Counted from the stretch's first letter, positions 59,081 to 63,621 are shown. The stretch is 64,000 nucleotides of DNA from a phage (GCA_014686905.1 GCA_014686905.1_4093.1), one strand, 5' to 3'. Program-made: numbers and translations. The notes: a model not told the origin generated them from the sequence alone.

Positions 59081-59473
59081 ATGACTGAATCAGAACTACA
59101 CGAAATGATAGATTTCATTTATGAAATGGTGCAAGATAAAAATAACATCAATACAATTACTACTGGACCAAGACAAATTGGTAACCAAATGACCTATTCG
59201 TTGTCTTTATGGTTACACCCGAACTTCAAGGTTGATTATTTGTATTTCCGTCCTGATATTGATGCTTATTATTTTGTAAATCATGATGCATTAATGAAAC
59301 CAAATAAGCGTACAGTTGATGATACCTTTGTGACACACCCATTTTACCTGGCTGATTCCGAAGAAGATGAGTTTCAAAAGAACACAACGTTAAACCCAGG
59401 TGAAATTTGCATCCCTTACGTACTTAAAGATAAAATGAATTACATCACAGAAGTTATGAAAACATGCTGGTAG
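59081..59473 (+). CDS. EE-x-F-Q-motif family member
   Basis: SEEDEFQKNTTLNPGEI. Confidence 0.45.
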   Translation: MTESELHEMIDFIYEMVQDKNNINTITTGPRQIGNQMTYSLSLWLHPNFKVDYLYFRPDIDAYYFVNHDALMKPNKRTVDDTFVTHPFYLADSEEDEFQKNTTLNPGEICIPYVLKDKMNYITEVMKTCW

Positions 59474-59521
59474 ATGCAATGAAACTCTGATATAATACAA
59501 ATAATGATAATAGGAGGATAT

Positions 59522-59740
59522 ATGAAATTTATTGATTTTGATATTTCTAAGGCCAAAGAATTATTTGTAAGAAATGAAGTTTATGATATCATGTTACATA
59601 ACGGCACTGTACAAGAAGATGTTGTGTTGTTTTCGTTTGATGGTGAAAATCTCGAAACTATATATAAATTCAGCAACTTAGATGGTGACTTTTGGGAAAC
59701 CAGTACTGTTAAAATGTATAGAATTAAAAAGGAGCATTAA
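59522..59740 (+). CDS. hypothetical small protein
   Basis: Track ORF 59504; ATG 59522 after AGGAGG. Confidence 0.4.
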   Translation: MKFIDFDISKAKELFVRNEVYDIMLHNGTVQEDVVLFSFDGENLETIYKFSNLDGDFWETSTVKMYRIKKEH

Positions 59741-59741
59741 C

Positions 59742-60230
59742 ATGCCAATTCGTGGTGTACCAGAACCATTAATGGAAGTTATTAAGCATGTTCGCATTGG
59801 AGATCGAGAAGTTAATCTTCGCCGTAATAACATTTATTACTTTAAAACTTCAGAAATGAGTTCTGTACAGATTGTCATTGGTACATCTATTAAGATTACT
59901 CGTGTACTTGATGGTAGTACTGATTTCGTTGAATATAATGTACTTACTAACAAAGTAATACACACATATAAATGGAGTGGGTATAAAACTATTAAGTATG
60001 AGTTTGATGTTGCTAGAACTGAAGAAGAACGATTTATGTTAAGTACTATCAATCCAGCAAACTACCCTGACCTTGATACATTTTTGCTAATTTTAAAACT
60101 GTATAATGAAGCAAATGGGAAAGCGAAGGAGTATGATAGAATTATGTATGAACGCAAAAAAGAACGTGCTCAGAAAAGTTATGATCTTTATGATAACCCA
60201 TATGTAAAATATAATAAGGGGAGAAAATGA
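59742..60230 (+). CDS. EE-x-F-Q-motif family member (degenerate motif)
   Basis: TEEERFMLSTINPANYPDL; ATG 59742 after GGAG. Confidence 0.45.
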   Translation: MPIRGVPEPLMEVIKHVRIGDREVNLRRNNIYYFKTSEMSSVQIVIGTSIKITRVLDGSTDFVEYNVLTNKVIHTYKWSGYKTIKYEFDVARTEEERFMLSTINPANYPDLDTFLLILKLYNEANGKAKEYDRIMYERKKERAQKSYDLYDNPYVKYNKGRK

Positions 60231-60631
60231 ATAACGAAGTTCAAATTATCATAACTCCACCTATACAAAGTCTTGATGTATCTATTAGTGATTTTTTAGA
60301 AAAATATTATGAATGGTTTAATAATGATAATACCATTTATAATCATTCATTACCAGATGGTTTCGTGGAGCTTATCGAATTAAATTCAAAATCACTATAC
60401 TTCTGTGTTGAATACAATGATTATATGACAGATGAAGCTTATCGCTTTCGTTGTACATTGTATCCGAATTATTTTTCAATAGGTTATAAAGATTACCAGT
60501 ACTGTACCACTAACTATAGTGTTGAGGAAGAATTTCAGTACAATTTACTTTATCCTGATTTAGATTATACGATTGCAGTACTGTTGACTAAAATCATGGA
60601 TTTTTATAAAGATAAATATAATGCAGCCTAA
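60227..60631 (+). CDS. EE-x-F-Q-motif family member
   Basis: VEEEFQYNLLYPDLDYTI. Confidence 0.45.
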   Translation: MNNEVQIIITPPIQSLDVSISDFLEKYYEWFNNDNTIYNHSLPDGFVELIELNSKSLYFCVEYNDYMTDEAYRFRCTLYPNYFSIGYKDYQYCTTNYSVEEEFQYNLLYPDLDYTIAVLLTKIMDFYKDKYNAA

Positions 60632-60806
60632 GACATTTGATGAGTGGTTTAATCTACACTATAATATAAATGCAGCAGATATATACTATTTTAAGCTTGA
60701 ATTGTATATATCATTGCGTAACCCAATTGAGTACTATAACAACATTATCAATTGTGATGATTTTGGTACATATTTTAGTATAGCCGTTATGGATATTAAG
60801 AGATGA
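60621..60806 (+). CDS. hypothetical small protein
   Basis: 61 aa; stop overlaps next ATG. Confidence 0.35.
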   Translation: MQPKTFDEWFNLHYNINAADIYYFKLELYISLRNPIEYYNNIINCDDFGTYFSIAVMDIKR

Positions 60807-60982
60807 CACATGAAGAATGGATGGCAATGATGAAAAAACGTTATGACCAGTTTGGAAATGGATTTATTGATGGTCATTTCGATATTTTACGAGACAAATA
60901 TAAGTTCGAATCATATGTACTAGATGAGAATGGAAATCGTTGGTTCATCTATGAGCTTGCGGTTAGAGACAAAAAAATATAA
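60803..60982 (+). CDS. MTHEEW-family mini-protein, copy 1 (59 aa)
   Basis: Untracked ORF MTHEEWMAMMKKRYDQFGNGFIDGHFDILRDKYKFESYVLDENGNRWFIYELAVRDKKI. Confidence 0.5.
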   Translation: MTHEEWMAMMKKRYDQFGNGFIDGHFDILRDKYKFESYVLDENGNRWFIYELAVRDKKI

Positions 60983-61060
60983 TAACCTTTTCCATTGTCC
61001 ATTGCAATGCTTTCTTTACAGAAGAATAAATGAAACACTTAATTGAACTGGATACATAAA

Positions 61061-61237
61061 ATGACACATGAAGAATGGATAGAGTCACTAAAATATAAAC
61101 ATGATCATTTTGGATTTGGTATACGCCAAGGCCATTATGATGTTTTGAACGATAAAAAAACGTTCGAATCATTGGTTTTGGACGAAGATTCCAACCACTG
61201 GTTCATCTACGAGCTTGCTATTAGAGATAAAAAATAG
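61061..61237 (+). CDS. MTHEEW-family mini-protein, copy 2
   Basis: Track ORF 61043 (TTG); ATG 61061 gives MTHEEWIESLKYKHDHFGFGIRQGHYDVL...WFIYELAIRDKK. Confidence 0.5.
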   Translation: MTHEEWIESLKYKHDHFGFGIRQGHYDVLNDKKTFESLVLDEDSNHWFIYELAIRDKK

Positions 61238-61264
61238 TAAGATAAATATAATAGTTATTACGGT

Positions 61265-61336
61265 GCAGGTAAAGTGTTGATGGCGGCATACAGTACTTCC
61301 GATTCTGGGGGTGGGGTTCAAATCCCCATACCTGCT
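61265..61336 (+). tRNA. divergent tRNA-Gly(TCC)-like gene or tRNA pseudogene
   Basis: Perfect 7-bp acceptor GCAGGTA/TACCTGC, T-arm TGGGG-TTCAAAT-CCCCA, anticodon loop CTTCCGA, but one anticodon-stem mismatch, A at position 8, no encoded CCA. Confidence 0.45.
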
Positions 61337-62227: not shown

Positions 62228-62250
62228 ATTTTAATTAAAGGTTAAAAACC

Positions 62251-62415
62251 ATGACGCATGAAGAATGGATGAATGACATTAATTTTAGATATTCGGGTAT
62301 CGGTAGTTGGAGAAAATATCATTGGGAAATCATATCAGACCCAGCAGAATACGATAAACTTATGAATCATGAAGTGTATCCGTGGTTCTTTATTGAAATA
62401 ATGGTACGATTATGA
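62251..62415 (+). CDS. MTHEEW-family mini-protein, copy 4 (54 aa)
   Basis: MTHEEWMNDINFRYSGIGSWRKYHWEI... Confidence 0.5.
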   Translation: MTHEEWMNDINFRYSGIGSWRKYHWEIISDPAEYDKLMNHEVYPWFFIEIMVRL

Positions 62416-62576
62416 CACATGAAGAATGGATGAATGACATTAATTTTAGATATTCGGGTATCGGTAGATGGCTAAAGTATCATTGGGAATTCATTTCAGA
62501 GCCACATCTGTATGATAAACTTATCAACGATCCAGCATATGAAATGTACTTAATTGAACTACTGGTACGATTATGA
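62412..62576 (+). CDS. MTHEEW-family mini-protein, copy 5 (54 aa)
   Basis: MTHEEWMNDINFRYSGIGRWLKYHWEF...; ATGA overlap with copy 4. Confidence 0.5.
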   Translation: MTHEEWMNDINFRYSGIGRWLKYHWEFISEPHLYDKLINDPAYEMYLIELLVRL

Positions 62577-62737
62577 CACATGAAGAGTGGATGAAACGCC
62601 AAAAATTAAAGTGGAATCCTTATTATCTACCATTAGATTCTAGAATGTGGGATGTTATACGTGTTAAGTGTATGTACAAAGCATATTTAAGTACTGAACT
62701 CGACGAAGAAGTACTGATGCATATCGTGCACCGATGA
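62573..62737 (+). CDS. MTHEEW-family mini-protein, copy 6 (54 aa)
   Basis: MTHEEWMKRQKLKWNPYYLPL...; ATGA overlap with copy 5. Confidence 0.45.
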   Translation: MTHEEWMKRQKLKWNPYYLPLDSRMWDVIRVKCMYKAYLSTELDEEVLMHIVHR

Positions 62738-62747
62738 TAAAAAAAAG

Positions 62748-62776
62748 CTTGACTAAATAGTTCAGTACTGTATAAT
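62748..62776 (+). promoter_or_regulatory. repeated promoter cassette copy 1
   Basis: 23-bp repeat CTTGACTAAATAGTTCAGTACTG then TATAAT (16-nt spacer). Confidence 0.6.
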
Positions 62777-62807
62777 GTTTGTATCTTAACTTATATGGCA
62801 ACTTGAT

Positions 62808-63161
62808 ATGTTTAGTGAATATGAAGAAGCAATAAAACGCAACCTTGAAGATTACAACTTCCAATTTTATATTTGGGATGAACTGATGAGATTGTGTTTA
62901 CAGTGGATGGAAAATGAAGAAACTCCTGACCAACGAACTGTTATATTAAACATTTTGTTACATAAAGATCTTAGTTCAATTAATGTTGAAGTTTCTACTT
63001 ATGTAGAAGAAGATTATAATCCCTATATTTCATATACTTCACCTGTACCAAAGACAGAAGAAGAATATTTTCAAATGAGTACTGTACAAGAACCATTGTT
63101 TACTTATGAGTTCTATAAGTACTTGGTTGGTGAATTCAAAAAAATGCGAATTAATTCTTGA
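62808..63161 (+). CDS. EE-x-F-Q-motif family member
   Basis: TEEEYFQMSTVQEPLFTYEF; preceded by repeated promoter cassette. Confidence 0.45.
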   Translation: MFSEYEEAIKRNLEDYNFQFYIWDELMRLCLQWMENEETPDQRTVILNILLHKDLSSINVEVSTYVEEDYNPYISYTSPVPKTEEEYFQMSTVQEPLFTYEFYKYLVGEFKKMRINS

Positions 63162-63186
63162 CTAAATAGTTCAGTACTGATATAAT
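63157..63186 (+). promoter_or_regulatory. repeated promoter cassette copy 2
   Basis: Identical 23-bp repeat, TTGACT-17-TATAAT. Confidence 0.65.
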
Positions 63187-63237
63187 GAATTCCACAATCA
63201 GACGTATATGGTGTAAGTTACGTATAGTGAGGTTTAT

Positions 63238-63621
63238 GTGATTATTAAAGATTTTTCAAAATATGAAGAGTTTTTAAAATCGTTTTTAAATTCCAATTTA
63301 ACATCAAAAGCTTCTAAAAATGGGAGTGAAGATAATCCTGAAATTAGAATTTTTAATGAAAATGGGGAATCATTTATTATTAATGATAACGAAATTATTT
63401 TTGAATCATTAGAAGTAACAAAAGAAATAAAAAAACTAAAAAAACCATCATTACAAGATATAGTAAATAGTTTGAATTGTGAATACATAACATTCCAGCT
63501 AAGTGCTGATGAAGAAGATGAATTTCAGAAACGCACAGTATATGAAAATGTGTTTCCACATGAATTAAATTCTGTAATATTTGAAGTGTTGGATAAGGTT
63601 TTTTCTGAAAATAGTACTTGA
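63238..63621 (+). CDS. EE-x-F-Q-motif family member
   Basis: ADEEDEFQKRTVYENVF; GTG start after GTGAGG; preceded by promoter cassette. Confidence 0.4.
   Translation: MIIKDFSKYEEFLKSFLNSNLTSKASKNGSEDNPEIRIFNENGESFIINDNEIIFESLEVTKEIKKLKKPSLQDIVNSLNCEYITFQLSADEEDEFQKRTVYENVFPHELNSVIFEVLDKVFSENST

Follow-up and report, generated by a model that had tools for sequence, protein, structure and literature searches.

A set of small genes with a common C-terminal motif

The stretch of DNA analysed here, called the window in the following, comprises 64,000 nucleotides (nt) of one strand of a phage genome (GCA_014686905.1). Between positions 59081 and 63621 it carries five small genes on the plus strand, named here after their first nucleotide, whose products share a short motif near the C-terminus: 59081 (59081-59473; 130 amino acids (aa), isoelectric point (pI) 4.7, motif SEEDEFQKNTTLN), 59742 (59742-60230; 162 aa, pI 9.3, motif TEEERFMLSTINP), 60227 (60227-60631; 134 aa, pI 4.1, motif SVEEEFQYNLLYP), 62808 (62808-63161; 117 aa, pI 4.4, motif TEEEYFQMSTVQE) and 63238 (63238-63621; 127 aa, pI 4.5, motif DEEDEFQKRTVYE). 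The strings EDEFQKNTT, EERFMLSTI, EEEFQYNLL, EEYFQMSTV and EDEFQKRTV, by which a preliminary description of the window had singled out these genes, were each recovered exactly and in this order. The start of 59742 is correct, with an AGGAG ribosome-binding site 7 nt upstream; its high pI is due to a basic C-terminal tail and its stop codon overlaps the start codon of 60227 (ATGA). Gene 63238 begins with GTG, preceded by a GTGAGG site. The five genes are best explained, with graded certainty, as old and diverged members of a family of small proteins that is densest farther upstream, and a promoter repeat found before two of them appears to be a local element that did not travel with the genes.

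The densest part of the family, at 47141-54700, contains ten members on the plus strand (47141-47569, 48335-48730, 48786-49196, 49198-49602, 49604-49981, 49978-50433, 50427-50867, 52910-53425, 53422-53877 and 54257-54700), interrupted by an open reading frame (ORF) resembling C5-methyltransferases and by small ORFs. The window thus holds 15 family candidates, and the five genes lie, as had been described, several kb from this main cluster (4.4-9 kb from the end of its nearest member at 54700).

The motif marks a paralogous family

The family consensus is [ST]EEx[FY]FQxS[TL][VIL]xD. When the relaxed pattern [ED]E.{1,2}F[QM]..[TL][TIVL] was searched, 13 ORFs of the window matched, all on the plus strand, as compared to an expectation of 0.04 and a maximum of 2 in 1000 within-protein residue shuffles. 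The distance between match and C-terminus is 32-50 residues in all but two proteins, whose C-terminal tails raise it to 68 and 84. In the five genes the distance is 37 (59081), 68 (59742, with its basic tail), 35 (60227), 34 (62808) and 36 aa (63238), and by size (115-170 aa) and motif position (30-50 residues before the C-terminus) all five fall within the family range, 59742 if its tail is allowed for. A hidden Markov model (HMM) built from nine main-cluster seeds detected 62808 (E 8e-7), 47141 (9e-7) and 59742 (1.9e-5), and left 63238, 59081 and 60227 undetected. Iteration with the homologous 40-kb regions of the distantly related phages Munch, GAP32 and CBB yielded 37-43 family ORFs, and a profile search of 1.84 billion representative proteins returned 104 clusters (50% identity) at E <= 1e-3, with lengths of 62-217 aa and all with the motif; none of the ten clusters that were looked up had an informative name. 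The information of the profile is concentrated in 13 positions (F 0.97, S 0.87, Q 0.84, E 0.80), and outside the conserved motif residues the members are ~15-25% identical. As the conserved Ser is encoded by four different codons (TCA, TCT, TCG or AGT), the motif is conserved at the protein level. Judged from these comparisons, the motif marks a real paralogous family, which must have expanded through gene duplication.

In the PHROGs database each of the five proteins matches one group of 'unknown function' over its full length (phrog_32367, 22160, 33143, 34619 and 38341; E 1e-54 to 1e-91). These groups consist of the orthologues in related jumbo phages; the paralogues are kept as separate groups that show weak cross-hits through the C-terminal region, and the superfamily is not recorded. 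A scan of ten members against Pfam gave no match at E <= 1, NCBIfam and PADLOC scans of the family gave nothing significant, and neither did a sequence-profile search of the PDB with the family profile, in which the best match was unrelated (E 0.75). Word-indexed homologue searches returned close orthologues only (38 with the profile, two with 60227 and six with 59081) and left the divergent genes unconnected. Literature searches brought up no description of the family. The link between the paralogues is hence absent from PHROGs, and the proteins make up a new family, as yet unnamed, of a familiar kind.

Copy number, synteny and genomic setting

The segment 59000-63700 shares 99.5% identity with Escherichia phages ECO103 4-12-1 and EC22.5-2, 99.4% with vB_EcoM_phAPEC6, and 90-96% with 121Q, PBECO4 and other Asteriusvirus jumbo phages (~350 kb), which identifies the source of the window, by nucleotide identity, as an Asteriusvirus jumbo coliphage of the phAPEC6 type. 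The window has a GC content of ~33%, and 105 of the 113 called ORFs are on the plus strand. Orthologues of the window members in phAPEC6 are gp134c, gp127c-132c, gp120c-121c, gp105c, gp103c, gp102c, gp093c, gp092c and an unannotated orthologue of 54257. At least 5-7 further members lie just beyond the window: in phAPEC6 five copies follow 1.5-4 kb past the window end (gp088c, gp087c, gp084c, an unannotated ORF and gp083c), and ~20-25 kb farther on gp054c and perhaps gp039c are found. In the compared loci the members outside the window have the coordinates 6751-7140 (L006, JNE01), 19024-21767 (L007, phAPEC6), and 35568-36086 and 29961-30557 (L008, phAPEC6); two family ORFs are unannotated in phAPEC6, the orthologue of 54257 and L007 20948-21364. 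A phAPEC6-type genome thus encodes ~20-23 copies over roughly 40 kb, and therefore the seemingly dispersed genes stand midway in a long, loose array and are no outliers of a single cluster.

All five genes keep their position in 121Q, vB_Ec-M-J and JNE01. The comparison with related phages, which the preliminary description had recommended, gives no support for mobile units, and since positional orthologues are present across Asteriusvirus, the genes are old and fixed and not recently mobile. Presence does vary: in JNE01 an additional family member follows a tRNA-Leu gene.

The dispersed members are interleaved with six plus-strand tRNA genes at 61265-63922 (Gly-tcc, Ser-tga, Arg-tct, Ser-act, Met-cat and Asn-gtt), so that the proximity to tRNA genes noted earlier is borne out, and family genes adjoin tRNA genes in Munch, GAP32, CBB and JNE01, too. 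The tRNA-Ser at 63657-63748 has the unusual anticodon ACT, with A at position 34, as in 121Q and JNE01, while vB_Ec-M-J has GCT; AGT is the commonest Ser codon of the window (440 of 1330). For phage Sharanji a tRNA-specific adenosine deaminase is listed (PMC11895373), and an enzyme of this type might act on tRNA-Ser(ACT). Near-consensus sigma-70 promoters are numerous in the region, 30-50 nt 5' of genes. In CBB, RpoD-like promoters are concentrated in the equivalent stretch of short ORFs, which is regarded as early (PMC5259590), and in phAPEC6 genes for a T7 gp0.7-like kinase and an RpoD-like sigma factor are located nearby. The ORF that interrupts the main cluster, at 51525-52385, resembles C5-cytosine DNA methyltransferases, its phAPEC6 counterpart gp123c being annotated as putative DNA methyltransferase; in GAP32 and CBB a methyltransferase stands at the start of the equivalent region.

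Predicted fold and the role of the motif

The family proteins of the window are small (117-171 aa) and 11 of the 15 are acidic (pI 4.1-5.1). An AlphaFold2 (AF2) model of 62808, calculated from a family alignment of 51 sequences, reached a predicted local distance difference test score (pLDDT) of 87.6 and a predicted template modelling score (pTM) of 0.79. It shows, as the predicted fold of this member, a helix (2-14), a five-stranded antiparallel sheet (18-22, 26-35, 43-52, 57-66 and 69-79), a short helix (84-93) and a long helix (100-116). For 60227, modelled from three near-identical sequences, the pLDDT was 53; the elements come in the same order as in 62808, but the motif is not helical. 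In BFVD the model of 62808 matched uncharacterised proteins only (A0A3Q9R6P7, E 5.8e-10; K4F6J8 of GAP32, 4.9e-7), and a Foldseek search against the PDB found nothing significant. Among the PDB entries, Mam33/p32/gC1qBP (3qv0, 1p32, 3jv1) gave E 0.14 and a template modelling (TM) score of ~0.2-0.3. These proteins form a doughnut-shaped homotrimer with a seven-stranded sheet and helices. The predicted fold of 62808 has five strands, the identity is 12% and there is no match to Pfam MAM33. The resemblance is generic, as polo-box, CapZ, Whirly and levivirus coat proteins reach nearly equal scores.

In the model the motif lies within the short helix, and the 10-residue blocks over it average pLDDT 91-95. 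This suggests that the motif is a structural signature of the fold rather than a free linear motif: TEE(E) would open the short helix as an S/T-x-x-E capping box, the invariant Phe is presumably buried, Phe and the small Ser would fit a face packed on the sheet, and the surfaces of sheet and helices would be free to vary. According to the main rival to this view, all copies would use the conserved helix to dock a single shared partner, either a host machine or a phage enzyme, and the variable remainder would recruit different targets, as in the ankyrin/F-box-like families of poxviruses. The extreme concentration of conservation in 13 residues, including the polar E, E, Q, S and D, would suit such an adaptor, as would the ~20 copies per genome. 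The motif by which proteins bind the beta clamp is QL[SD]LF, and some copies read FQLSLI or FQRSLV, which loosely resemble it. However, the prediction shows the motif as an ordered helix that packs within the domain and not as a flexible peptide, and a capping box and a core position of Phe and Ser would fit its residues, so that we consider the adaptor unlikely.

Graded membership of the five genes

For 62808 and 59742 membership is firm by profile score: in a larger ORF set 62808 was found with E 4e-6, and 59742 with 1e-4, improving to 1e-20 after iteration. The direct HMM match of 63238 is weak (E 0.002-0.14), and its membership is firm by transitivity. Its best partner in BLASTP is the representative P0106 (E 4.9e-6 over 128 aa), which scores 1.5e-16 against a family profile of 111 sequences built without P0106 and 63238; hhalign aligned 63238 to the family with 80% probability. 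Gene 59081 is a probable divergent member that forms a sub-group with 63238: hhalign gave 78% probability (P 1.8e-5, over 30 columns) to the group of 63238 and 14% to the family, and the HMM values of E 0.002-0.03 across iterations are marginal. It has its own PHROG (32367) and no Pfam match. The weakest candidate of the five is 60227, likewise a probable, divergent member, whose copy in the window is not significant with the family HMM (E 0.7-6.7); with the JNE01 orthologue added, hhalign gave 25% probability (P 7.5e-4).

It might be argued that 59081, 60227 and possibly 63238 are unrelated to the family and share only the short motif by chance or convergence. Against the 111-sequence profile the window copies reach no more than E 0.14 (63238), 0.31 (59081) and 6.7 (60227). 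In all three, Glu stands just before the invariant Phe, where the family has an aromatic residue; at the position of the conserved Ser, 59081 and 60227 have Asn and 63238 has Arg; and the AF2 model of 60227, taken alone, is of low confidence. On the other hand, the motif lies equally far from the C-terminus (35-37 aa) and the proteins are of equal size, and the orthologues in JNE01 are nearer to the consensus and score better against the same, independent profile: that of 63238, in which the Ser is restored (EEDEFQKSTVYEN), with E 1.2e-4, that of 60227, which is related to 60227 with E 7e-8 and carries the canonical LEEEEFQYSLVQD, with 0.003, and that of 59081 with 0.03. Furthermore, 63238 leads to the family through P0106, 59081 leads to 63238, 60227 is linked by translational coupling to 59742, itself a firm member, and the order of predicted secondary-structure elements in 60227 is that of 62808. 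Taken together, a merely convergent motif in these genes appears distinctly improbable.

A local promoter cassette

An identical 23-bp cassette had been reported before two of the genes, and CTTGACTAAATAGTTCAGTACTG is indeed found exactly before 62808 and 63238. A third copy, missed in the preliminary description, lies ~10 nt upstream of the tRNA-Ser gene at 63657; the three copies, at 62748, 63157 and 63617, have 0 mismatches, with 0 expected (100 shuffles). All are on the plus strand. Copy 1 (62748-62776, TTGACT-16-TATAAT) ends 32 nt 5' of 62808, copy 2 (63157-63186, TTGACT-17-TATAAT with a TG extension) 52 nt 5' of 63238, and copy 3 (63617-63646, TTGACT-17-TAAAAT) precedes tRNA-Ser(ACT), which is followed by the Met and Asn tRNAs. 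With 11 of 12 hexamer positions matching sigma-70 in copies 1 and 2, 10 of 12 in copy 3, and the next gene or tRNA 10-52 nt downstream, the cassette is a predicted strong, near-consensus sigma-70 promoter. It resembles the RpoD-like early promoters of CBB and GAP32 (TTGACx-16/17-TATAAT in a region of short ORFs and tRNAs). In contrast to ordinary sigma-70 promoters, its copies share an identical spacer with a 10-bp palindrome (TCAGTACTGA) that sigma-70 does not need; the spacers of the other strong promoters in the window are all different.

Phages 121Q and vB_Ec-M-J have the cassette at the three positions seen in the window, and an Asteriusvirus genome has 3-5 such places. In JNE01 the orthologue of 62808 lacks it, and a variant with two mismatches precedes tRNA-Ser(TGA). 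Between cassette 2 and the orthologue of 63238 there are ~150-390 nt of ORF-free DNA in 121Q, vB_Ec-M-J and JNE01. This ORF-free segment of ~320 nt is 98% conserved between 121Q and vB_Ec-M-J, with a shorter remnant in JNE01 (L004 6272-6596, L005 5780-6105, L006 ~8890-9040), and is absent from the window between 63223 and 63236; the 121Q segment has no Rfam match and folds no better than shuffles (z -0.8). Cassette 2 adjoins 63238 in the window because the intervening segment was deleted in this phage, and for the same reason 63238 starts with GTG right after the cassette.

The preliminary description went further and proposed that modular units of promoter plus family gene had spread by duplication. 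Relationship of the five genes to the main-cluster family, at the graded certainty given above, and duplication as its origin both hold, whereas the promoter-plus-gene unit is not supported. In its favour, the three exact direct repeats of the cassette bracket 62808 and 63238 in units of 409 and 460 bp, exact direct repeats could mediate duplication or deletion, and real segmental duplication is seen nearby, though in a different family of small genes. But an all-against-all nucleotide alignment of the 15 genes, each taken with 200 nt of 5' and 150 nt of 3' flank, in line with the flank comparison that had been suggested, found the cassette alone in common, besides matches of 15-19 nt that are at chance level or encode the motif; no other family gene shows any flank similarity, and 13 of the 15 lack the cassette. 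Close paralogy between 62808 and 63238 is not seen (BLASTP E 0.24, with better partners elsewhere), yet their cassettes are 100% identical, and by the same values their origin as a recent tandem pair was rejected. The third copy and the JNE01 variant precede tRNAs, cassette 2 is not adjacent to the 63238 orthologue in the three related phages, and gene order is conserved across the genus. A scattered promoter-plus-gene module is thus very unlikely. From these comparisons the cassette did not travel with the genes and is not part of a copied gene unit; it appears to have been copied locally three times, serves tRNAs no less consistently than family genes, and its identity, including the palindromic spacer, is kept by selection or gene conversion.

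The duplications seen nearby concern a second small family of 54-60 aa, all starting with MTHEEWM, of which six copies (60803-60982, 61061-61237, 61580-61762, 62251-62415, 62412-62576 and 62573-62737) are interleaved with the tRNAs. The copies at 62251 and 62412, arranged as a 161-nt tandem repeat, are 81% identical in nucleotides and 70% in amino acids, and copy number varies among related phages, so that recent duplication is visible here, unlike in the motif family. In addition, a 91-nt direct repeat with 87% identity (60990-61080 and 61509-61599) spans the 3' end of the gene 61363-61578 and the start of the next MTHEEWM copy; as read from the sequence, its upstream copy has an in-frame stop and would then be a decaying remnant of a segmental duplication.

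The AGTACT palindrome

The palindrome (C)AGTACT(G), which also occurs within the spacer of the cassette, is the most over-represented word in the window: AGTACT was counted 120 times against 21 expected, CAGTACTG 24 times against 0.6 and TCAGTACTGA 8 times against 0.06. Within genes, compared to 200 synonymous-codon shuffles, AGTACT occurs 110 times against 29.7 +/- 4.9 and CAGTACTG 21 times against 1.1 +/- 1.1, and Ser-Thr pairs are encoded AGT-ACT in 51% of cases, where codon usage predicts 14.5%. A 6-10-fold excess of AGTACT was also found in Munch, GAP32, CBB, 121Q, vB_Ec-M-J and JNE01, and a literature search on the palindrome found nothing. By these counts the enrichment is a clade-wide DNA-level signal at synonymous sites, and it may be a more unusual signal of the window than the gene family. 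Two further elements flank gene 59081: a strong terminator-like hairpin directly 5' of it (59038-59064; 11 pairs, then a T run) with AGTACTG in the stem, and, after its stop codon, TGATATAAT, an extended -10-like element at 59486-59494.

In principle the repeated motif could stem from an element at the level of DNA, be it the AGTACT palindrome or some other site, in place of protein conservation. The Ser-Thr pairs of the motif are encoded AGT-ACT in 6 of 7 cases, the palindrome is selected at the DNA level genome-wide, and this codon use creates nucleotide 'repeats' of 19-39 nt between family genes (repeat families D4, D7 and D8). Nevertheless, the motif is kept with Ser encoded by TCA, TCT or TCG and with Leu/Thr alternatives, six members (47141, 48335, 48786, 49604, 49978 and 54257) are without any AGTACT, and the invariant Phe-Gln lies outside the palindrome. 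On this codon evidence a DNA-level element as the main cause was rejected as extremely improbable; it remains a real secondary bias.

A proposed role as diversified early binders

The explanation which we favour, with moderate confidence, is that one lineage-restricted family of small, mostly acidic, non-virion proteins fills the promoter-rich and tRNA-rich region of Asteriusvirus and of related Rak2/GAP32-like jumbo phages, and that the five genes are old and diverged paralogues belonging to it. The proteins would be synthesised early from host sigma-70 promoters, the cassette being a shared local promoter, and they would act as diversified binders on a constant scaffold, directed against different targets of the host or of rival elements, in host takeover or counter-defence. 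Several points weigh against this explanation. Literature searches turned up no transcriptome for this phage group that bears on timing, four of the 15 members are not acidic, and predicted secondary structure and confidence values were the only source for the structural role of the motif. The membership statistics of 60227 and 59081 are weak and biased by the motif that prompted the testing. Moreover, with values of 31-72% against JNE01 for family genes and 38-96% for neighbouring non-family genes, the orthologues of the family do not clearly diverge more, and accelerated evolution peculiar to the family is thus unsupported.

T4 and phiKZ-like phages have paralogous internal-protein families whose cleavage motifs end in Glu. 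Following this precedent, and as phAPEC6 has an inner body (PMC7247149), the proteins might be packaged internal head proteins with [ST]EE as prohead-protease site, but this was rejected as hardly credible, since the 62 virion proteins identified by mass spectrometry in phAPEC6 include no orthologue (gp083c-gp134c, gp054c and gp039c are absent, and there is no entry between gp078c and gp149c; PMC7247149, Table 1) and the genes lie in the sigma-70 promoter region and not among the late genes.

Large viruses encode other multigene families of many diverged, arrayed copies with a conserved core and a variable remainder, such as roughly 35 zinc-ribbon copies in Bacillus phage G (PMC7824862), eleven RCC1-like genes in phAPEC6 (PMC7247149) and the ankyrin/F-box-like families of poxviruses. 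All of these have been attributed to tandem duplication; the fold and the sequence family here are different. A bolder extension of the early-binder explanation, which we regard as rather doubtful, would see in the ~20 copies an arsenal of small acidic p32-like decoys or inhibitors for the first minutes of infection, each neutralising a different host defence or host factor. Because family genes interleave with tRNA genes in every related phage, tRNA-directed nucleases may be among the targets, and the palindromic spacer of the cassette would be an operator switching family genes and tRNAs off together.

Taken alone, the finding reveals no new mechanism: large, diverged families in early regions are familiar in phages, and the promoter repeat is a local curiosity. 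However, ~80% of the genes in the jumbo phages of this group are unannotated, and recognising ~20 hypothetical proteins per genome as one family with one fold turns them into a single question. For screens by expression, toxicity, pull-down and deletion, aimed at functions in host takeover or counter-defence, the family offers a delimited set of genes.

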